Origin: a virus
Taxonomy: Duplodnaviria; Heunggongvirae; Uroviricota; Caudoviricetes
IMG/VR virus record: IMGVR_UViG_2541047681_000005
Length of the DNA stretch: 12,615 nucleotides
Strand: one strand, 5' to 3'
The notes beneath the pieces were generated by a model. It did no database searches. It saw only the letters and a list, made by a program, of their open reading frames with translations, and was not told the DNA's origin. A program made the translations under genes and the position numbers. This document shows positions 1,837 to 12,615 of the stretch, one piece after another; positions within the stretch are counted from its first letter, which is position 1, and every line of letters starts with the position of its first letter.

Positions 1837-2196
1837 ATGAATACTGGATATTCTCCCGAACAAGGGCGGGGCTTCGTTCGTCCTGAAAAACAGAATCTGC
1901 AAAATTTTGCCGAAATTATTCCGGTTATTTCCGGCCTTACTGGCGGGAGTGAAACCAATATTGTTAACGCCAGAGCGTTGCAGATGTTTGATGATAAAAA
2001 GGGAGTAAATTTAACTTACACCCCTGACGGCAATCAGAATATGAGCATTATCTCTGAGTCAGGTTTCTACAAACTAATAAAAACAAAAAGCGCCCCGTTG
2101 CCGGAGCGCCTTTGTGAACAATTAACCTACTGCGCAAAAAATGAATCTGAGCAGTGGGATTATATCAACCATGTGGAGAAGCGCCACAATTGCCGA
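1837..2196 (+). pseudogene. Possible decayed Bro-N/antirepressor-like remnant (N-terminal part of a 428-aa composite ORF)
   Basis: The first ~115 aa (DGNQNMSIISESGFYKLIKTKSAPLPERL) weakly resemble the Bro-N/KilA-N motif (ESGLYSLI...). The remainder of ORF 1837..3123 is Cys/Arg/Ser-rich and low in complexity, crosses a divergent promoter region and overlaps a better-supported minus-strand gene, so the long ORF is not one real protein. Confidence 0.25.
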
Positions 2197-2543
2197 ATAA
2201 CGGGCAAAACAAAGGCCACCCGCTACGGTGGCCCCTCGACACAAGCTACACGTTATCCCCAACGCATGAGCATTGCCAACAATGCCACATTTGCGGCTGG
2301 TGGGCAATGCAATCAGTCTGGTTCAGTTCGTTGCCATACCTGCAATGAGCGCTTTTCCCTGTACTCTTTAAGGAATTGCTCAAGGGCAAAAGCACATGGC
2401 GCGAATCTTTCTGATTCATGCTCTATCTTTCTGCGCCGTCTTTTCCGTGCCGGTGATAATGTTTTGGTCAATTCTTTATCGGTCATTGTGTTGTCCTGCA
2501 TAGCAATGCGCCGTAGTTACTCACACCACGGCGCTGGTGATGG

Positions 2544-2723
2544 TTACTCCTGCTCTTTGGCCTTGCGGCGCTGGCGGCGTTTGATTTCGCCGCGCATGGC
2601 TGCGTTTATAAACTGTCCCGTGCTTTCGCCTTCTTCTTTCACGTTCTCCATGCCTTCAATAATTTCATGGGCAATACGTGCAGTTACAGATTGTGATTTT
2701 GCATTCTTTGGACCCGTTGCCAT
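2544..2723 (-). CDS. Hypothetical small basic protein (59 aa), divergently transcribed from the left operon
   Basis: Internal ATG at 2721..2723 (complement) preceded by RBS GAGGGG with 6-nt spacing; product MATGPKNAKSQ...EIKRRQRRKAKEQE. Candidate -35/-10 (TTCAAA/TATATT) on the minus strand, overlapped by operator-like repeats. Family not recognised. Confidence 0.45.
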   Translation of the reverse strand: MATGPKNAKSQSVTARIAHEIIEGMENVKEEGESTGQFINAAMRGEIKRRQRRKAKEQE

Positions 2724-2744
2724 GTTTAACCCCTCATGTTTTTG

Positions 2745-2826
2745 GTGTAAGACAATATACACGAAAAAAAAATATTTTGAAGGGTTGACGTGTAAGACAC
2801 CATTGTTTTACATTGTGTCTTACACC
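2745..2826. promoter_or_regulatory. Divergent promoter region with three copies of an 11-bp operator-like motif GTGTAAGACAC
   Basis: Motif at 2745..2755 and 2790..2800 (direct) and 2815..2825 (inverted). Candidate + strand promoter -35 TTGACG (2785..2790) and -10 TTACAT (2808..2813), 17-bp spacer; one operator copy sits in the spacer and the inverted copy at the predicted +1. Candidate minus-strand promoter overlaps the first copy. Confidence 0.55.
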
Positions 2827-2922
2827 TTATTGATGAAAGGCACAGAAACGACGAAACCCCGCACTGTAGGAGCAGTAACGGGGCTTCTAACCACCAACGA
2901 TAGCAACAGTATCGAGGTAGCT

Positions 2923-3123
2923 ATGAGAAATCATACCACACACCCGAAAGGGCGGGACTCGCACAACCTGAATAAATACATCTGGCGTTTTATCGCCCTG
3001 AGCACGGCACAACCGCGCGTGATTACCATTGAGGCCACCAGCGAACAGGAAGCACGCCAGCAATCTCCGGCTGGCTGCGTGATGGTATTTGCTGCCCGTA
3101 TTCGTCAGGGGGTAGGCTTATGA
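2923..3123 (+). CDS. Small protein (66 aa), first gene of the left operon; possibly Icd-like, otherwise hypothetical
   Basis: ATG at 2923 with RBS GAGGT upstream; product MRNHTTHPKGRDSHNLNKYIWRFIALSTAQPRVITIEATSEQEARQQ.... Its stop overlaps the next ATG (ATGA). The Icd-like assignment is a recollection of P4-like prophage annotations and is unverified. Confidence 0.45.
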   Translation: MRNHTTHPKGRDSHNLNKYIWRFIALSTAQPRVITIEATSEQEARQQSPAGCVMVFAARIRQGVGL

Positions 3124-3795: not shown

Positions 3796-4095
3796 ATGAA
3801 ACTTAAATATTCTGGCTTAACTGCCAGTGGCAAAACTCGCACTAAATTCATGCGCGGTGATATTTACCGCGACCAGTACGGCGGCACGGTAATGATTAAG
3901 GGCGTGGAGGAACGGCGCGTAACCTACCGTCGTGAAGGCTACGAATATGATTGCGTGATGCCTGTTTATCAGTTCGATCGTGATTTTTCTCTGGTGCAGG
4001 CCGTACCGCGTAACGTGCCCACCAGCAGGGAGAAAGCACGCGCCAATATTCAGGAAATAAAAAAGATGCTTAACGTATTCAGGGGTAAGAAATGA
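3796..4095 (+). CDS. Hypothetical protein (99 aa)
   Basis: ATG at 3796 with RBS GGAGA 9 nt upstream; stop overlaps the primase start (ATGA). No family recognised. Confidence 0.55.
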   Translation: MKLKYSGLTASGKTRTKFMRGDIYRDQYGGTVMIKGVEERRVTYRREGYEYDCVMPVYQFDRDFSLVQAVPRNVPTSREKARANIQEIKKMLNVFRGKK

Positions 4096-5846
4096 AACTG
4101 GCACCGAACGTAAAAAAACAACCACGCGGAATAAAACACAAAGACACAGAGGTAATTATTTTCGCGGGTAGTGATGCGTGGTCACATGCAAAACAGTGGC
4201 AGGAGCAGGACGGCCCCGCATCCGGCGATAATGTGCCGCCTGTGTGGCTTGGGCCAAATCAGCTTGCCGAACTTGATGCGCTGAAAATTGTTCCGGATGG
4301 GAAAAAGCGCGTAAGGCTGTACCAGGCCGGAGAACTGGATTTAGTGGAGACCAAAAAGATTGGTCAGAAGCTGGCGGCGGCAGATATTCAGGACGCAAAT
4401 TTTTACCCTGATGGTATGCACGGTCAGAAGGTGGAGAACTGGCGCGAATATCTGGCCCGTGAGCGCCAGAATCTTTCTGATGGTCTGGTCATTGAGCTTC
4501 CGGTAAAGCAAAAGGCGCAACTTTCGCAGATGGCGGACAGTGAGCGCGCGCAGCTGCTTGCCGATCGCTTTGATGGCGTTTGCGTACATCCTGAAAGTGA
4601 AATCGTTCACGTATGGCGCGGCGGGGTATGGTGTCCGGTCAGCACAATGGAACTTAGCCGCGAAATGGTGGCGATCTATTCAGAGCACAGGGCCACTTTC
4701 AGCAAGCGCGTAATCAATAACGCCGTGGAAGCGTTAAAAGTTATTGCCGAACCAATGGGCGAGCCGTCCGGCGATTTGCTGCCGTTCGCCAATGGTGCGC
4801 TTGACCTGAAAACGGGGGAATTTTCCCCGCACACGCCGGAGAACTGGATCACCACGCACAACGGCATTGAGTACACGCCACCAGCACCAGGGGAGAACAT
4901 CCGCGATAACGCGCCAAACTTTCATAAATGGCTTAAGCACGCAGCCGGAAAAGACCCGCGCAAGATGATGCGTATATGTGCCGCGCTGTACATGATTATG
5001 GCGAACCGGTACGACTGGCAGATGTTTATTGAGGCCACCGGAGACGGCGGGAGCGGTAAAAGTACATTCACGCACATAGCCAGCCTTCTGGCAGGGAAAC
5101 AGAACACGGTAAGCGCTGAAATGACATCGCTTGATGATGCTGGTGGACGTGCGCAGGTTGTCGGGAGTCGTCTTATCGTCCTGGCTGACCAGCCGAAATA
5201 TACAGGCGAAGGAACGGGCATCAAGAAAATCACGGGCGGTGACCCCGTGGAAATTAACCCGAAATACGAAAAGCGTTTCACGGCTGTAATCAGGGCGGTG
5301 GTGCTGGCGACCAACAATAACCCGATGATATTCACCGAACGGGCCGGAGGTGTGGCACGTCGTCGCGTGATTTTCCGTTTCGACAATATCGTCAGTGAGG
5401 CCGAAAAAGACAGGGAGCTACCGGAAAAGATCGCGGCTGAAATCCCTGTCATTATCCGCCGATTGCTGGCGAACTTTACCGACCCTGAGAAGGCACGGGC
5501 TTTACTACTGGAACAGCGTGACGGTGATGAAGCACTGGCAATAAAGCAACAGACGGATCCGGTTATTGAGTTTTGCCAGTTCCTGAATTTTCTGGAGGAA
5601 GCGCGCGGCCTGATGATGGGGGGCGGTGGCGATTCAGTGAAGTACACGACCAGGAACAGCCTTTACCGCGTCTATCTGGCGTTTATGGCATACGCAGGCA
5701 GGAGCAAACCGCTAAACGTAAATGACTTTGGAAAGGCTATGAAGCCTGCCGCAAAAGTTTACGGACATGAATATATTACGCGGAAAGTTAAGGGGGTAAC
5801 GCAGACTAACGCAATAACAACAGACGAGTGCGACGCGTTTTTATAA
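4092..5846 (+). CDS. Replication primase/helicase, P4-alpha / D5-like family with P-loop NTPase domain
   Basis: 584-aa ORF with RBS AGGGG upstream; Walker A motif GDGGSGKST, followed by a hydrophobic strand (LIVLADQP) consistent with Walker B. Position after int-alpA and immediately before an iteron cluster matches satellite pri-rep genes. Confidence 0.9.
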   Translation: MKLAPNVKKQPRGIKHKDTEVIIFAGSDAWSHAKQWQEQDGPASGDNVPPVWLGPNQLAELDALKIVPDGKKRVRLYQAGELDLVETKKIGQKLAAADIQDANFYPDGMHGQKVENWREYLARERQNLSDGLVIELPVKQKAQLSQMADSERAQLLADRFDGVCVHPESEIVHVWRGGVWCPVSTMELSREMVAIYSEHRATFSKRVINNAVEALKVIAEPMGEPSGDLLPFANGALDLKTGEFSPHTPENWITTHNGIEYTPPAPGENIRDNAPNFHKWLKHAAGKDPRKMMRICAALYMIMANRYDWQMFIEATGDGGSGKSTFTHIASLLAGKQNTVSAEMTSLDDAGGRAQVVGSRLIVLADQPKYTGEGTGIKKITGGDPVEINPKYEKRFTAVIRAVVLATNNNPMIFTERAGGVARRRVIFRFDNIVSEAEKDRELPEKIAAEIPVIIRRLLANFTDPEKARALLLEQRDGDEALAIKQQTDPVIEFCQFLNFLEEARGLMMGGGGDSVKYTTRNSLYRVYLAFMAYAGRSKPLNVNDFGKAMKPAAKVYGHEYITRKVKGVTQTNAITTDECDAFL

Positions 5847-6134: not shown

Positions 6135-6413
6135 ATGCACACTTCAGGGAAATTTAATAAATCACTCAAAAAACGCAGAGACAGAACAGAACCGAAATAT
6201 CGCGCGTTAGACATGACAGAGCACGCTTTAAAGGTGGCAATCAGAACGATAGACCGCCACGCGGGGGAAGGATACGCGAAAGCACATCCCGAACTGATAA
6301 GCGCATTCATGACCACGACGGCGGCAAATTTTGCCACGCTGACAGAGCGGGAGATTGCCGAAGCGGAACAGGTAACAACCATCAACGTTAAAACCGGAGA
6401 GGTGGAATCATGA
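6135..6413 (+). CDS. Hypothetical protein (92 aa)
   Basis: ATG at 6135 with strong RBS GAGGGGG; stop overlaps the next start (ATGA). No family recognised. Confidence 0.55.
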   Translation: MHTSGKFNKSLKKRRDRTEPKYRALDMTEHALKVAIRTIDRHAGEGYAKAHPELISAFMTTTAANFATLTEREIAEAEQVTTINVKTGEVES

Positions 6414-6832
6414 CAGCACAGATAGCAGCTTACGGGCGGCTGGTGGACGACCCGCAGGTAAAACAGACCAGCAAGGGCACACCGATGACGCTGGCGCGTA
6501 TGGCGGTCCCCCTTCCGTGCAGCCAGGCAGATGACGGAACGGCGACGATGTGGTTATCCGTCCTGGCATTTGGCAGACAGGCCGAAGCACTGGAAAGGCA
6601 CCGCAAGGGTGAACTCCTGAGCGTGGCGGGTAACATGCAGATCAGCCAGTGGACTGGGCAGAACGGAGAAACGCGGCAGGGCTGGCAGGTTATCGCAGAC
6701 AGTGTAATCAGTGCGCGAACGGCGCGACTGGGCGGCAAAAAAGGTCAACAGGGCCAGGCTACTGACGCGCTGAACAGGGCAAAACAACAGGCGGGGAATG
6801 ATGATCCGTACGGGGATAACATACCGTTTTAA
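6410..6832 (+). CDS. SSB-like single-stranded DNA-binding protein (OB fold with SSB-type C-terminal tail)
   Basis: 140-aa ORF with RBS GGAGAGGTGG. N-terminal region aligns by eye with the E. coli SSB OB fold (GRLVDDPQV vs GNLGQDPEV; WLSVLAFGRQAEALERHRKGELLSV vs [25 protein letters not shown]). Gly/Gln-rich linker and C-terminal DDPYGDNIPF resemble the SSB DDDIPF tail. Confidence 0.65.
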   Translation: MTAQIAAYGRLVDDPQVKQTSKGTPMTLARMAVPLPCSQADDGTATMWLSVLAFGRQAEALERHRKGELLSVAGNMQISQWTGQNGETRQGWQVIADSVISARTARLGGKKGQQGQATDALNRAKQQAGNDDPYGDNIPF

Positions 6833-6848
6833 GCGACGAGAGACAGAA

Positions 6849-6870
6849 GCCGGAGCAATCCGGCTTTTTT
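6849..6870 (+). terminator. Rho-independent terminator after the SSB-like gene
   Basis: Hairpin GCCGGA-GCAA-TCCGGC followed by six T (6865..6870). Confidence 0.7.
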
Positions 6871-6908
6871 ACGGGTCCTCCTGGCGGGGTGGGCCTGAAC
6901 ACGGGGCG
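6871..6908 (+). other. Degenerate cos-like sequence (pseudo-cos)
   Basis: ACGGGTCCTCCTGGCGGGGTGGGCCTGAACACGGGGCGGGAAGCGCGG resembles the cosQ/cosN segment at 9313..9360 (ACGGGTCCTTTCCGG...ACGGGGCGGCGACCTCGCGG), and is preceded by the same terminator hairpin, but lacks the intact GGGCGGCGACCT core. Confidence 0.45.
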
Positions 6909-7044
6909 GGAAGCGCGGAAAAAAGCGCATTTTTGTGATTTTATCGTCATCATCATCATGAGCGTAATTTATTGTTTTTAATTGTTTTGATGCAAAAAAG
7001 ATGATGGTTGTGGTTAATTTTCGTTCGACATCTTTGCAGGCAGA

Positions 7045-7087
7045 TAAAAAAGCCCGATAAGGTCAGAGGTGGCTTATCGGGCTTTTG
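7045..7087. terminator. Bidirectional hairpin terminator candidate
   Basis: 11-bp perfect stem AGCCCGATAAG / CTTATCGGGCT with 11-nt loop, A-run upstream and T-run downstream. Confidence 0.5.
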
Positions 7088-7163
7088 CATATGAGGCTTT
7101 TTGGTGCACTGACACACATGAGCGGGATCATCATTTCATAATTTGCAACACAACTCAATATCA

Positions 7164-7212
7164 TTGTACAAAACGCAATCCTGATTATAATCAGAGCTGG
7201 ATGAACATCCAG
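7164..7212 (+). promoter_or_regulatory. Candidate promoter of the capsid operon with overlapping palindromic operators
   Basis: -35 TTGTAC (7164..7169), 16-bp spacer, -10 TATAAT (7186..7191). The -10 lies inside a perfect 14-bp palindrome CTGATTATAATCAG (7181..7194), followed by inverted repeat CTGGATG-AA-CATCCAG (7197..7212). Confidence 0.5.
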
Positions 7213-7247
7213 TTATGATTTTTTAAGTCGAAGAGGAATTTCTTACT

Positions 7248-7454
7248 ATGGCTGAAGAGAAAAAAGGCGGTGTTTCGGTGTACATAAGCCCCGAAATCGT
7301 GGAGGTGCTCAAGCAGCGCCACAAAAAAAACTATGAGGCTGGCGTGGCGGCTGGACTGGATCCGCTGATGACGCCGGAGCCGTCGATAGGTTCACTTGTA
7401 CGCTCTTATTTACTTGCGGCGCTTGGGATGCATAAAAATTATGGGGGTGAATAA
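7248..7454 (+). CDS. Hypothetical protein (68 aa), translationally coupled to the major capsid gene
   Basis: ATG at 7248 with RBS AGAGGA; its stop TAA overlaps the capsid ATG (TAATG). No family recognised. Confidence 0.55.
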   Translation: MAEEKKGGVSVYISPEIVEVLKQRHKKNYEAGVAAGLDPLMTPEPSIGSLVRSYLLAALGMHKNYGGE

Positions 7455-8509
7455 TGGCAGGCAAAGCAACGGCACTTAACACTAACCAGCTTTTCATGTA
7501 CCTGAATCGCGGGGATATTGCGGATTTTAAATTCAGCCCTCTGTTTACTACGCTGTTTTTCCCGAACGTGGCGACATTCAGCACGCAAAACATCATGCTG
7601 GATACCCTGGACATTGAAGAAGTCACCATGTCGGCGTTTTGTTCGCCTATGGTGGGTAGCCAGGTTCAGCGCGATAAAGGGTACGAAACCAGCACGATTA
7701 AACCTGGCTACATGAAGCCAAAGCACGAAATCGATCCAACGAAAACCATCATGCGCATGGCTGGAGAAGATCCGGCACAGCTTAACGACCCTACCTATCG
7801 CCGTATGCGCCTGATTACTGGCAATATGCGCCGCCAGATAAACGCCATAAAAGCGCGCGTGGAATGGCTGGCGGTAAATGCGGTAACGACCGGAAAAAAC
7901 ATCATTGAGGGCGAAGGCATAGAGCGCTATGAAATCGACTGGAAGATACCGGAAAAAAACATCATAGAGCAGGCCGACGGGAAAAAATGGTCAGAGCAGG
8001 ACAAAGAAACCCACGATCCAATCTATGATATCGAACTATACGCCGATCAGGCTGGTTGCCCCGCAAACGTCATGATTATGGGCGCTGAGGTATGGCGAAC
8101 GTTACGCAGCTTTAAAAAATTCCGTGAGCTGTACGATCTTTCCCGTGGTTCAGAATCCGCCGCCGAACTGGCCTGTAAAAACCTGGGCGAAGTGGTGAGC
8201 TTTAAAGGCTATCTTGGTGATCTGGCCCTTATCGTCTATTCCGGCAAATACACTGACAGCGATGGTACCGAAAAATATTTCCTTGAGCCTGATTTGCTGG
8301 TCCTGGGCAACACCAACAATAAAGGGCTGGTGGCCTATGGTGCGATAATGGATCAGGAAGCGGTAAGAACGGGCGCAACACAAAACATGTTTTACCCGAA
8401 AAACTGGATTGAGGACGGCGATCCGGCGATTGAGTACGTGCAGACACACAGTGCACCGCAGCCGGTACCGGCAGATATTCGCAAATTTGTTACCGTCAAA
8501 ATTGGTTAA
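7454..8509 (+). CDS. Major capsid protein, lambda gpE family
   Basis: 351-aa product aligns by eye along its length with lambda gpE (341 aa): [163 protein letters not shown] upstream. Confidence 0.9.
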   Translation: [351 protein letters not shown]

Positions 8510-8521
8510 CGGGGGGATTCT

Positions 8522-8857
8522 ATGGACACTCCATACATTGAGTTATTTGCAGGCAGTCAGCAGGTCGCCACGACGCTGGTACATTTTGCCGCTGATGCTG
8601 GCGTTATTCAGGAATTTACCCCGCTGATGCTGGCAGACAATGGCGAGTTTAAGCCGTGGGATGGTCAGGAATCTGGCAAGGCTGTTTATCTGACCTCGTA
8701 CCCTGTGGACACGTCAAAGCAGAAATCAGCACAGTGTTACAAGACGGGGATTTTCAATATTGCCGCCGTTAACTGGCCTGAGAGCGTCGACACCGATGCG
8801 AAAAAATGCGCCGCCTTTGCGGGTTCTGGCGTATCCGTTCAGCCGCTGGCCCGATAA
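8522..8857 (+). CDS. Head decoration protein, lambda gpD family
   Basis: 111-aa product (lambda gpD is 110 aa) with TPLMLADNGEFKPWDG vs TPLMLDTSSRKLVAWDG and YKTGIFNIAAVNWPESVDTDAKKCAAFAGSGVSVQ vs [44 protein letters not shown] upstream. Order is capsid then decoration, the reverse of lambda (D then E). Confidence 0.85.
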   Translation: MDTPYIELFAGSQQVATTLVHFAADAGVIQEFTPLMLADNGEFKPWDGQESGKAVYLTSYPVDTSKQKSAQCYKTGIFNIAAVNWPESVDTDAKKCAAFAGSGVSVQPLAR

Positions 8858-8869
8858 GCAGGGGGAACG

Positions 8870-9283
8870 ATGGCAACGAATGAAAGCGTCATGACGCTAC
8901 CGCTGGCGAGTAAATTTAAAGCCGAAGCGCGGGCAATGGCTGACAGAGGTTTATCAACCTACGAGGCCGTATATCAACTCAACAAACTGGAAGAGCAGGA
9001 CAAGCCGCGCGCTGATGCGATTATGGCGCTTCATGAACATAACGACTATCAGCCGCTGTTACGTGCAATGGCAAACGTGCCATGTATTAGCGTCGATAAT
9101 GCTCGTGAAATCCTGAACATGACCATAGAGCAGGAGCGCCCAAAGGTTGCGCCGGAGCTTACCGCAGCCTTTGAAAACTTTATGGACATGCACAGCCCGA
9201 AAGCCGTATCACCCGGCATGGCATACGACGGCAGAAACCAGGGCGATGAAGGCGACGTCGATCGCATACTGAAAACCATCTGA
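8870..9283 (+). CDS. Hypothetical protein (137 aa), last gene before cos
   Basis: ATG at 8870 with RBS AGGGGGA; followed by a strong terminator. No clear similarity to lambda FI or other remembered head proteins. Confidence 0.6.
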   Translation: MATNESVMTLPLASKFKAEARAMADRGLSTYEAVYQLNKLEEQDKPRADAIMALHEHNDYQPLLRAMANVPCISVDNAREILNMTIEQERPKVAPELTAAFENFMDMHSPKAVSPGMAYDGRNQGDEGDVDRILKTI

Positions 9284-9289
9284 CATAAG

Positions 9290-9312
9290 GCCGGAGAAAT
9301 CCGGCTTTTTTT
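9290..9312 (+). terminator. Rho-independent terminator after the capsid operon
   Basis: Hairpin GCCGGA-GAAA-TCCGGC followed by seven T (9306..9312); near-identical to the hairpin at 6849..6870. Confidence 0.75.
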
Positions 9313-9445
9313 ACGGGTCCTTTCCGGCATATGGACCCGTTACGGGGCGGCGACCTCGCGGGTTTTCGCTATTTATGACGTTTTTCCGTGAAGGTGACAC
9401 CACCACCACTTGATTAATATTTAACCATGCGGTTAAGGTAACATT
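9313..9445 (+). other. Lambda-type cos site (cosQ-like, cosN, short cosB) upstream of the TerS-like gene
   Basis: TACGGGTCCTTTCCGG...GTTACG|GGGCGGCGACCTCGCGGGTTTTCGCTATTTATGA closely matches the lambda cohesive-end region as remembered. Predicted 12-nt cohesive end GGGCGGCGACCT at 9345..9356. One R-site-like element (CGTTTTTCCGTG, about 9381..9392) and an AT-rich stretch follow. Confidence 0.75.
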
Positions 9446-9886
9446 ATGATTGATAAAGCTTGTTTTGTAAGTCAGCAGGAAATAGCTGAACATTTCAAGG
9501 TTAACAGAACCACTATTCGCGCATGGACCAAACAGGGGATGCCGTATCTTAATGCGGATCGCGGAAAGTCTGGCGGTTATCACATCGGGCATACATTGCT
9601 TTGGTCTTCAGGTAAAAGCCGTCTTGAGGCCATCAGATATCACGTAGAAACCAGTGCGCTGGAAAAAATTATGTTTGCCAGGCTGCTTTCATCTGAGCGT
9701 GACGAGTACTCCAGTGAAGAAACAGAACATCGATTTGATGAAGGTTTGCAGATTTACGGCTATTCACCGGAAGATGTGAGCAAGGCACGAAATAAAATGG
9801 CTGGCTTTCTGGCTGGGTGGCGTCATGCCGTAAGCGTTCGCCGTGCCAGCATGGAACAATCAGTCGTTACAGAACAGCAAAGTTAA
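9446..9886 (+). CDS. Small terminase-like protein, lambda Nu1-type DNA-binding N-terminus with divergent C-terminus (TerS/Rpp-like)
   Basis: 146-aa ORF about 90 bp downstream of cosN, as Nu1 is in lambda. N-terminus QQEIAEHFKVNRTTIRAWTKQGMPYL aligns with Nu1 KKQLADIFGASIRTIQNWQEQGMPVL (winged HTH). Shorter than Nu1 (181 aa) and the C-terminal region does not resemble Nu1's. Confidence 0.7.
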   Translation: MIDKACFVSQQEIAEHFKVNRTTIRAWTKQGMPYLNADRGKSGGYHIGHTLLWSSGKSRLEAIRYHVETSALEKIMFARLLSSERDEYSSEETEHRFDEGLQIYGYSPEDVSKARNKMAGFLAGWRHAVSVRRASMEQSVVTEQQS

Positions 9887-10012: not shown

Positions 10013-10090
10013 TCTTTATTTTTACTTAGTTATCAAATGGATATGACAAACAATTAAACAACAACCTCCCTCTAAAAAAGCTCATAAATA

Positions 10091-10145
10091 GCGAAAAACC
10101 GCGAGGTCGCCGCCCCGTAACGGGCCATAATTCCAGGAAGGACCC
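10091..10145 (-). other. Second cos-like sequence in inverted orientation (cosQ/cosN-like, no recognisable cosB)
   Basis: Reverse complement of 10091..10145 reads CGGGTCCTTCCTGGAATTATGGCCCGTTACGGGGCGGCGACCTCGCGGTTTTTCGCTATTTATGA, about 85% identical to cos at 9313..9380 including an intact GGGCGGCGACCT. No R-site-like element or TerS gene follows it on the minus strand. Confidence 0.6.
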
Positions 10146-10179
10146 GACGACACCAGACTATCAGAACGATGGGGGCACA

Positions 10180-10461
10180 ATGACAGAAGCCGAAATACTG
10201 CGATTAATCCGCCGCGTTGCCGGAATCAGCCAGCAGCATGACGAACAGGCCACGCAGCCGGACAGCGTGACCGCTGAAAATTATGTGCGTGTTGTTGCTG
10301 AGGTGATGCGCCGTGATGGTATCCAGCTTAATGATGTTGATATGCGCGACATACGGATCCGCGTTCTGGAAATGCTGGCCTACAATCGCCGCGTTGAACT
10401 GTATCGGGAGAAAGAAAAAATAACGTACCACTGGAAGAAGCCGGAGCGGTTGCGGCGGTAA
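10180..10461 (+). CDS. Hypothetical protein (93 aa)
   Basis: ATG at 10180 with RBS GGGGGC upstream; charged product (MTEAEILRLIRRVAG...). No family recognised. Whether it belongs to the satellite or the junction region is unresolved. Confidence 0.5.
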   Translation: MTEAEILRLIRRVAGISQQHDEQATQPDSVTAENYVRVVAEVMRRDGIQLNDVDMRDIRIRVLEMLAYNRRVELYREKEKITYHWKKPERLRR

Positions 10462-11154: not shown

Positions 11155-12615
11155 TTATTCATCTTTCGGCGCAGAATGCTGGCGACCAAAAATCACTTCC
11201 ATCCGCGCACCGCCCAGCATGCTCTCTCCGGCGACGATTTTACCCTCATATTGCTCGGTGATTTCGCGGGCTACCGCCAGCCCCACACCTTGCCCAGGGC
11301 GTAAAGTATCAACCCGTTGACCACGGTCGAAAATGACCTCTCGCTTGCTTAATGGAATACCGGGGCCATCATCCTCGACCACAATATAGAGATGCTCGTC
11401 GGTTTGCCTTGCAGAAATTTCGACAAACTCGAGGCAATATTTACAGGCGTTATCCAGCACGTTGCCCATCACTTCGACAAAATCATTCTGCTCACCAACA
11501 AAGCTGATTTCTGGCGAGATATCGAGAGAGATATTGACCCCTTTGCGTTGATACACTTTGTTCAGCGCCGAGGTGAGATTGTCCAACAGTGGCGCGACCG
11601 GATGCAGCTCGCGGCTAAGCAATGTCCCGCCGCGCATACTGGCACGATGCAGGTAGTAGCCAATTTGCTGTGAAATGCGGCTGATTTGCTCCAGCATTAC
11701 CGGCTCAGCATCACTGACGCTCATCTTCTCACTACGCAGAGAACGCAGCGTACTTTGCAGCACCGCCAGTGGCGTTTTCAGACTATGGGTCAGGTCGGTG
11801 AGCGTTGTACGATATTTGTCGTAACGTTCGCGTTCACTTTTTAACAGTCGGTTCAGGTTTCGTACCAGACTGGTCAGTTCTCGCGTTGTGGCTGGATTGA
11901 GCAATTCACGGTTATGTTCTTCCAGTTCGCGGACTTCTTTTGCCAGGGCTTCGATGGGGCGTAAACTCCACCAGGCGGCGACCCACAGCAGCGGGATCAC
12001 TAACAGCAGATTGGCTGAGAGCACATAGATAAACCAGCTCCAGACCATATAGGAACTTTTTAGCTCCACCGGAATGGTATCCACCACCACAATGGTTAAC
12101 TTTGGCATCCGCGATGTTGCCGGGTAGACGTTTACCGCCACCGAGTGGGTCATCTCCGCGTCGTCATCATCTTCCCGCACTTCCTGCAACTGTTGCTGTA
12201 TCGAATGATCTCCACTCAGCAAGAGGCTGGTATCGTTAACATCCGCTTCAATTTCATGAAAACCATTCGATTTCAGCCAGTCAGGCTGGATCATCTTCAT
12301 CAGCCAGGGCACGTCACGTTGCGCCCATAAAAGCTGCCCGTTCTCATCATAAATTAGTGTCATCGTGGGGCTTTGCTTGTCGATATTTTCGGGTAACTCG
12401 ACATGCAACTTATTGTTTTCCCACTTCGCAAGGGTATAGAACAGATTGCTCTCGCCACGTAACAGCCGAAACGTGGTTTTATCGAAACTGACGCTATAAC
12501 CGATCAGCGCAACCATTCCGTAGGCAAGCGAAAGCACCAATACTACTGCTGCCGTTGCTAACAGAAAACGTACCCGCAGCGAGAGCGGGAAAAAAAGATG
12601 CAGTAATTTTTTCAT
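11155..12615 (-). CDS. phoQ: Sensor histidine kinase PhoQ (PhoP/PhoQ two-component system), complete
   Basis: 486-aa minus-strand ORF whose ATG is the last codon of the window. Two transmembrane segments, periplasmic acidic cluster EDDDDAE, H-box [15 protein letters not shown] and G-box DDGPGIP; reads as full-length Escherichia/Shigella-type PhoQ. Confidence 0.97.

Follow-up and report, generated by a model that had tools for sequence, protein, structure and literature searches.

A gene of an EcCICFT073-type phage-inducible chromosomal island encodes a stand-alone homolog of the Nu3-type scaffolding module of lambdoid phages

We analyzed a 12,615-nucleotide (nt) stretch of DNA, the IMG/VR virus record IMGVR_UViG_2541047681_000005 (Caudoviricetes), which we refer to in full as the window, and we focused on a gene at positions 8870-9283 of its plus strand that encodes a 137-amino-acid (aa) protein (the target). 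The window is an EcCICFT073-type Gram-negative phage-inducible chromosomal island (PICI) adjoining phoQ: it has the PICI layout of int, alpA, a replication module, cos and rpp within about 11 kb at a chromosomal attachment site, and it lacks tail and lysis genes. The island of CFT073 is laid out in the same way and also adjoins phoQ. In EcCICFT073, which is about 11 kb (KEGG table, supplement of PMC6092414), c1498 encodes 68 aa, c1501 encodes 137 aa and c1502 encodes 60 aa (supplement, PMC6092414); c1499 is named a capsid protein and c1500 a decoration protein (PMC6092414), and c1503 has been identified as RppA (PMC6739421). The target is 90% identical to c1501 and of equal length (137 aa). 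With this identity, the length and the shared layout, we conclude that the target is an allele of EcCICFT073 c1501. The two are orthologs with the same neighbors (c1498, c1499, c1500, cos1 and rppA) at the same roxA/phoQ site, and we found no substantial difference between them. An earlier note on the window, made from the sequence alone, had called the protein unknown. This description holds in that searches of Pfam, NCBIfam and PDB sequences with the target protein alone returned no matches, but the open reading frame (ORF) itself was already known as c1501. In the published work that we consulted, c1501 is without an assigned function and appears only as a landmark for marker insertion or within an "adaptable module" that can be replaced.

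The target ORF has an ATG start, 137 codons and a TGA stop at 9281-9283. Its start lies 13 nt past the stop of a gpD-like head decoration gene, the c1500 homolog (8522-8857, plus strand; PF02924, HDPD, E 1e-17), and a Shine-Dalgarno sequence, AGGGGG, can be read on the same strand at 8860-8865, 4 nt 5' of the ATG. An intrinsic terminator (9287-9312, plus strand), consisting of AAGGCCGGA-GAAA-UCCGGCUUU plus a U-run, starts 4 nt past the target stop and marks the end of a capsid cassette. A consensus terminator scan overlooked this GC-rich hairpin, which was revealed by direct RNA folding (dG -17.4 kcal/mol, z -2.7). With the PF02924 gene upstream and cos downstream, the earlier note was right to place the gene between the decoration gene and cos.

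Several observations bear on whether the ORF is a gene. PHROG 1999 matched the protein end to end (E 1e-61), and the target DNA was matched in 596 of 5426 complete E. coli genomes (631 places), with at least 80% of the gene covered in 591 of them. The decoration gene was counted in 598 of these genomes (633 places); the two genes are co-inherited. In all of the related loci examined (85/85), the target occupied the slot after the coat and decoration genes at a fixed spacing. The ratio of nonsynonymous to synonymous substitution rates (dN/dS, Nei-Gojobori) was 0.24-0.36 in pairwise comparisons of five orthologs, except for one pair with very few differences, which gave 0.63; the neighboring genes gave about 0.1 (coat) and about 0.05-0.2 (decoration). 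We conclude that the target is a real gene under purifying selection and more than a chance ORF.

The family is narrowly distributed. A word-indexed homolog search retrieved only orthologs more than 58% identical to the target, and an exhaustive hidden Markov model (HMM) search of 1.8 billion representatives gave 13 matches, among them P0040, which is a divergent ortholog, and a small number of phage proteins of the Nu3 type. No relative turned up in two scans of GTDB species-representative genomes, and thus the family seems to be confined to non-representative E. coli-like strains. A tblastn search of phage genomes found the target as a stand-alone gene in no sequenced phage, and family members were met only in PICI-sized contexts.

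Sequence comparisons connect the target to the scaffolds of lambdoid phages. PHROG 53, "head maturation protease", was matched by the target at C-terminal positions 495-567 of 583 (E 2e-9), and the one tblastn match in phage genomes fell at the end of the protease/scaffold frame of Escherichia phage 204576, just 5' of the decoration and coat genes. The natural helper of EcCICFT073 is the lambdoid prophage at icd of CFT073 (PMC6092414; PMC10111431). This prophage encodes a 501-aa S49 peptidase (WP_001253913.1) directly before its decoration and coat genes, and BLAST aligned target residues 49-131 with residues 416-493 of the peptidase (36% identity over 83 aa, E 7e-10). The C-terminal ~190 residues of the helper protein consist of three repeats of ~45 aa, with the consensus xxIMALxEAKGRExLAxxLAxxPGMTVxxAxxLLAAAP, followed by a tail, AMFEHFMANHSPAAV...DADVKMLMAMP. 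Related phage S49/Nu3-type proteins have two to five repeats, and residues 119-201 of lambda Nu3 comprise one repeat and the equivalent tail (repeat HMM E 2e-22). A profile of the last phage repeat plus tail matched lambda Nu3 at aa 125-190 (hhalign E 1.3e-15), and the PICI family in turn matched the last phage repeat plus tail (hhalign probability 97.5%, E 6e-12). Direct BLAST of the target against lambda gpC/Nu3 gave nothing significant; the link to lambda Nu3 is visible only through intermediate phage sequences, which explains why the earlier note missed the similarity to lambda.

The alignments extend over the length of the protein. MAFFT placed the whole target collinear with a 158-aa two-repeat Nu3-type protein. 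The ~45-aa repeat that characterizes the module, IMxL-EAKGRE-LAxxLAxxPGMTVxxAxxLL, was recognized in the second repeat of the target, and both elements of the module's tail, an F(E/D)xFM helix and a terminal hydrophobic peptide, are present: the target tail, AAFENFMDMHSPKAV...DVDRILKTI, aligns with the phage tail given above and with the lambda sequence ALDRLMQGAPAP...DAVNDLLNTPV. Taken together, we conclude that the target is homologous to the scaffolding module found at the C-terminus of lambdoid S49 protease/scaffold proteins (lambda gpC/Nu3) and is encoded on its own, without the protease, which makes it a satellite-borne new member of the Nu3-type scaffold family. The earlier note had placed the gene where lambdoid phages encode head-completion or packaging-accessory proteins, and such a role gives way here to homology with the Nu3/gpC scaffolding module. 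Its statement that the protein has no similarity to lambda FI, FII or W agrees with our BLAST, Pfam and PHROG results, as it does for the helper homologs of FI, FII and W. From its suggestion of a "satellite-specific packaging or capsid-size factor" we keep satellite-specific and a relation to the capsid, and we drop packaging and size.

The number of repeats ahead of the conserved tail varies among lambdoid S49/Nu3-type scaffolds, here P0064, P0077, P0083 and lambda Nu3 (L003:5132-5737), from one (lambda) to five. Stand-alone Nu3-type gene calls occur in some phages and metagenomes (P0041, P0064) and may be internal-start products. The phage repeat also gave weak Pfam matches to helix-hairpin-helix families, which were below threshold (E 0.009-0.095).

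The architecture of the target can be described as two repeats and a tail. Repeat 1 (aa 5-45; 8882-9004, plus strand; VMTLPLASKF..ARAMADRGLSTYEAVYQL) would be a degenerate phage scaffold repeat. MAFFT puts it on the first repeat of phage Nu3-type proteins, and its self-alignment with repeat 2 scored 28, which was reached by 99 of 5000 shuffles (p ~0.02). Repeat 2 (aa 46-90; 9005-9139, plus strand; DAIMALHEHNDYQPLLRAMANVPCISVDNAREILN) was identified by the phage-repeat HMM over aa 49-83 (E 8e-6), and both BLAST and hhalign align it to the last repeat of the helper S49 protein. A tail helix follows at aa 95-107 (9152-9190, plus strand; ELTAAFENFMDMH). Its AAFENFMDMH segment is the one best conserved with the helper-type scaffold (TAMFEHFMANH) and is nearly invariant among PICI orthologs. 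The C-terminal helix at aa 128-137 (9251-9280, plus strand; GDVDRILKTI) shares its pattern with phage DADVKMLMAMP and lambda Nu3 DAVNDLLNTPV, and RILKTI is invariant even in the 38%-identical ortholog P0040. Natural 93-aa alleles (P0027, P0030, P0031) lack residues 21-64 (8930-9061 in the window), which is exactly one repeat, in frame; the deletion junction lies between two ARAMA motifs.

We modeled the protein with AlphaFold2. From orthologs only, the predicted local distance difference test (pLDDT) score was 50. With phage homologs in the alignment, the mean pLDDT was 74.7 and aa 1-80 were helical at 79-94. Repeat 1 scored 79-94, and repeat 2 scored 87-94 in 10-residue blocks over aa 41-80 and 70 for aa 81-90. 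The tail was predicted as low-confidence helices at aa 95-107 (pLDDT ~54-62) and 128-136 (pLDDT ~50). In this model, aa 1-88 are confidently predicted as two ~44-aa helical repeats that form one compact domain, and the tail is probably flexible. Such a folded helical core, with a docking segment at the C-terminus that is flexible, is what one would expect of an internal scaffolding protein, as a resemblance and not as proof.

We compared the target with lambda gpNu3/gpC and lambdoid S49 scaffolds as a group. The target shares with them the ~45-aa helical repeat (IMAL..EAKGRE..LA..PGMTV..A..LL) and the tail (F(E/D)xFM...hLxT(P/I)). Its gene adjoins gpD- and gpE-type genes, and its predicted structure is helical throughout and ends in a flexible C-terminus. 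In contrast to the phage scaffolds, which are encoded inside, or fused to, an S49 protease gene that precedes D and E, the target stands alone; it has no Peptidase_S49 domain (Pfam) and lies downstream of the E-like and D-like genes, so that the island order is E-D-scaffold and the phage order is scaffold-D-E. The target has two diverged repeats, compared with a single one in lambda, three in the helper and as many as five in some phages, and the KGRE motif has been lost. Finally, its putative scaffold role would be played in a satellite without a portal, protease domain or large terminase among the genes of the window.

The target belongs to a cassette whose gene order is fixed: orf68 (7248-7454, plus strand), a c1498 homolog with a PHROG 3255 match (E 9e-46) and no match in Pfam; a gpE-like major capsid protein (MCP) gene (7454-8509, plus strand), the c1499 homolog (PF03864, E 6e-52); the decoration gene; and the target, which is always last. 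In 83 of the 85 loci, which is every fetched locus that reaches that far upstream, orf68 is found 5' of the MCP gene. The orf68 product has the length of lambda gpW (68 aa), yet it is not similar to gpW or to any Pfam family, and orf68 alleles fall into two classes, ~69% and ~100% identical to the window copy. The island coat protein is 45% identical to the MCP of the helper prophage and 44% identical to lambda E, and the island decoration protein is 44% identical to that of the helper prophage. Given these identities to the helper, together with 36% for the scaffold-like protein, we conclude that the island has diverged paralogs of the three adjacent shell-building helper genes (C/Nu3, D and E), ordered E-D-scaffold.

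The cassette recurs in different surroundings. It was found in islands with differing replication modules (D5 primase or RepA helicase), at differing attachment sites (roxA/phoQ or allC) and with differing downstream packaging genes (RppA-type or TerS-like). In many IMG/VR islands with the same cassette, the gene past cos is not RppA-type, and in the O157:H7 SS17 island (L007:9620-10162) it encodes ~180 aa and is annotated "terminase small subunit". These non-RppA genes indicate that the packaging gene has been exchanged independently of the cassette. In the window, the four cassette genes are bracketed by direct repeats (6849-6918 and 9290-9359, 95% identity). By three-way alignment, the upstream copy (plus strand) contains a terminator hairpin, a cosQ-like segment and a degenerate cosN (GGGCGGGAAGCG vs GGGCGGCGACCT). 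The bracketing terminator-cos repeats suggest that the cassette inserted at, or duplicated, the cos region.

Within the cassette, the target evolves faster than its neighbors. The ortholog at one divergent locus (L008) is 38% identical to the target, compared with 84-85% for the coat, decoration and Rpp proteins, and the N-terminal IMxLPLASKF and C-terminal DRILKTI are unchanged in it. In this divergent island (Logan ERR3372453 contig, 2277-2440), the cosN region, GGGACGGCAGACGCGC, differs from the lambda type; the island may use a different helper type.

The remaining features of the window are those of the island. Upstream of the cassette are genes for an integrase (1-1230), AlpA (1596-1784), a D5-type primase (4092-5846) and SSB (6410-6832). 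A 428-aa ORF at 1837-3123 (plus strand) had no Pfam match and is probably not one real gene; related islands have several small genes on both strands in this place, and a ylcI-like ORF lies at 2544-2762 on the minus strand. A gene for a PerC-family regulator lies between ssb and orf68 in the islands of CFT073, L006 and O157:H7, and is absent from the window (6833-7247) and from L001. Downstream of the target is cos1 (9314-9385, plus strand), with a lambda-type cosQ and cosN and an exact 12-mer, GGGCGGCGACCT, at 9345-9356. It is followed by an RppA-type rpp gene (9446-9886, plus strand) for a 146-aa protein that has weak Nu1/HTH and TerS-family matches and is 99% identical to the CFT073 gene in the c1503 position. 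RppA-type Rpp redirects helper TerS to the PICI cos (PMC6739421). Sequence matching and repeat analysis identified a second, inverted cosQ/cosN, cos2 (10075-10146, minus strand; 12-mer at 10104-10115). The two cos sites flank rpp as a 72-nt inverted repeat (86%), with an exact copy of the 12-mer in each. Both cos1 and cos2 have been described in EcCICFT073, where only cos1 was important for transfer (PMC6092414). The window ends with orf93 (10180-10461) and phoQ (11155-12615, minus strand), which runs to the window end.

From homology, architecture, synteny and selection, we think that the target probably serves as an internal scaffold or assembly chaperone for an E-type coat. After a helper induces the island, the c1501-family protein would act in this capacity. 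Its repeat domain would self-associate, as does lambda Nu3, a scaffold that dimerizes and interacts with E, B and C (PMC3224144), and its C-terminal tail would dock on the inner face of the E-type coat, the island's own and possibly the helper's too. Satellite coat subunits, and then the decoration protein, would enter procapsids nucleated on the helper portal. The helper protease would mature these procapsids and then remove the scaffold. The role would be accessory, in that cos/Rpp-driven transfer by laboratory phage 80 infections proceeds without it.

A number of results weigh against assigning the target to the Nu3-type scaffolds and giving it and its cassette a part in building shells. 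Repeat 1 was not significant with the repeat HMM alone, so its statistical support is weak, and the direct comparison of the target family with lambda Nu3 was marginal (E 0.011), in the same register. Among solved structures we found no match to lambda Nu3 or to the family profile. The profile searches and structure prediction that the earlier note had advised produced the scaffold-module homology and, with phage homologs, a usable model, and the fold searches found no relative. In published experiments, deletion of c1499 or c1500 left transfer and lambda interference unchanged (PMC6092414), and packaged EcCICFT073 DNA was phage-sized without a PICI-monomer band (PMC6092414). Replacement of c1498-c1501 by cas9 or melA gave islands that were still transduced by phage 80 lacking cosN (PMC10530653, PMC10460865), so the cassette is dispensable for laboratory transfer. 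When the genes of the region were expressed from pBAD18, only c1503 (rppA) inhibited lambda (PMC6739421). The earlier note had named the lack of a deletion phenotype as a reason to abandon its reading, and part of this has been seen: phage 80 still transduces the island with c1498-c1501 replaced, and plasmid-expressed genes of the region other than c1503 did not inhibit lambda. In the published work on these islands that we consulted, we found no report of the island coat protein in particles or of particle protein composition, no clean single c1501 deletion with the natural helper and no statement relating c1501 to Nu3.

We also considered whether the published "c1501::tetA" marker disrupts c1501, which would undermine the published negative results. 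The primers (PMC6092414 supplement) put tetA between the stop codon and the terminator hairpin, leaving c1501 intact, and we rejected this idea.

We further asked what the scaffold, coat and decoration genes could do together. The trio could be a working "shell kit" that makes chimeric or fully satellite-made shells on helper portals, with c1501 as a private scaffold and with natural helpers of a matching S49 scaffold type; we offer this as a tentative idea and consider it somewhat unlikely. The published assays, made with the natural helper, lambda and phage 80, measured transfer titers, lambda plaques and packaged-DNA size, not particle protein, and therefore they have no bearing on the shell kit. 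Like SaPIbov5 with its Ccm protein and like capsid-forming PICIs (cf-PICIs), this satellite has its own gene for an HK97-fold coat, here accompanied by decoration and scaffold genes. Ccm differs in that it alone changes the helper capsid shape. cf-PICIs differ in encoding portal, protease, connectors and terminase and in building complete small capsids, whereas this island has only the shell-forming trio and otherwise depends on the helper. None of the genes that cf-PICIs carry besides the coat gene (portal, head protease, connectors, HNH, TerS/TerL) was found in the window.

The main rival to a scaffold for satellite shells is that the target is a decoy or competitor. It would mimic the coat- or portal-binding tail of the helper protease/scaffold without the protease, take up binding sites of the helper, disturb assembly or maturation of the helper procapsid, and so add interference with particular helpers. 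The tail helix is the segment best conserved between island and helper (TAAFENFMDMHSPKAV vs TAMFEHFMANHSPAAV), which suggests a shared partner, and the fast evolution of the target, seen in the 38%-identical L008 ortholog, fits adaptation to helper variants. There is also a precedent in SaPI1 CpmB, which works in this way through a C-terminal motif common to the 80alpha scaffold (PMC6893505). However, deletion of rpp (c1503) alone restored lambda plaques almost fully (PMC6739421), and only c1503 inhibited lambda from pBAD18, although these results concern lambda only, which has a divergent Nu3 tail. A decoy also leaves unexplained why the island has coat and decoration genes of its own under strong purifying selection. 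We judge the decoy to be unlikely.

CpmB (gp6) is also the known protein that the target would most resemble in its action, by analogy and without being related to it. Both are small helical proteins of satellites, CpmB is an internal scaffold with a C-terminal motif like that of the helper scaffold (PMC6893505), and transfer does not require the satellite gene. We found no homology or structural similarity of the target to CpmB or to the phi29 scaffold.

The example of CpmB raises redirection of capsid size, in which a CpmB-like alternative scaffold and a Ccm-like coat homolog would make small, island-sized capsids. The island is only ~11 kb, it combines coat and scaffold homologs that SaPIbov5 (Ccm) and SaPI1 (CpmB) have separately, and the target has two repeats where the helper scaffold has three. 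The published experiments give no sign of such capsids: packaged DNA was entirely phage-sized when lambda was the helper, no PICI-monomer band appeared after induction in CFT073 with its natural helper, the tetA-marked island that was used has an intact c1501, and later papers describe these islands as multimers packaged in large capsids. Size redirection is therefore disfavored and in our view improbable, and the "capsid-size factor" of the earlier note is disfavored with it on the same evidence (PMC6092414).

We regard as no less improbable that the target is a decaying relic of a captured phage head module without a current function. The absence of phenotypes for the c1499 and c1500 deletions and the dispensability of the cassette for transfer would fit a relic. 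The direct repeats that bracket the cassette could reflect a past insertion, and a few alleles are without one repeat. A relic would not be expected to match over at least 80% of the gene in 591 of 596 carrier genomes, nor to show dN/dS of ~0.3 (and ~0.1 for the coat gene). Islands that differ in replicase, attachment site and packaging gene all keep one gene order and spacing, and even the alleles that have lost a repeat are still in frame.

A head-tail connector or packaging accessory like FI, FII or W is very improbable: the gene does lie close to cos and behind the coat gene, a place taken in lambda by FI and FII, its product is close to FI in size (137 vs 132 aa), and several orthologs are named "phage head-tail connector protein" by NCBI, but there was no match to a connector, gpW, FII or FI family in Pfam, NCBIfam or PHROGs and no BLAST similarity to W, FI or FII of lambda or the helper prophage, the significant homology is to the scaffold module, and the PGAP label on these orthologs is misleading and unsupported.

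Islands of the EcCICFT073 type serve as the model for Gram-negative phage satellites, and their engineering into delivery vehicles is under way, with the conserved block c1498-c1501 treated as disposable. The capsid block occurs in ~11% of complete E. coli genomes. The gene itself was already present in databases and in the model island; what is new is its assignment to the Nu3 type and the view of the cassette as a shell kit. The assignment gives a concrete, testable hypothesis for the block, and it defines a repeat-plus-tail architecture of one to five repeats for lambdoid scaffolds, including lambda Nu3. With c1501 recognized as Nu3-type, the island has paralogs of all three shell genes, not just a stray coat gene. 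If the shell kit is real, its possible benefits include escape from capsid-targeted defenses of host or helper, or altered particle stability, and the island would stand, in function and in evolution, midway between classical PICIs, which take entire capsids from the helper, and cf-PICIs, which take tails only.

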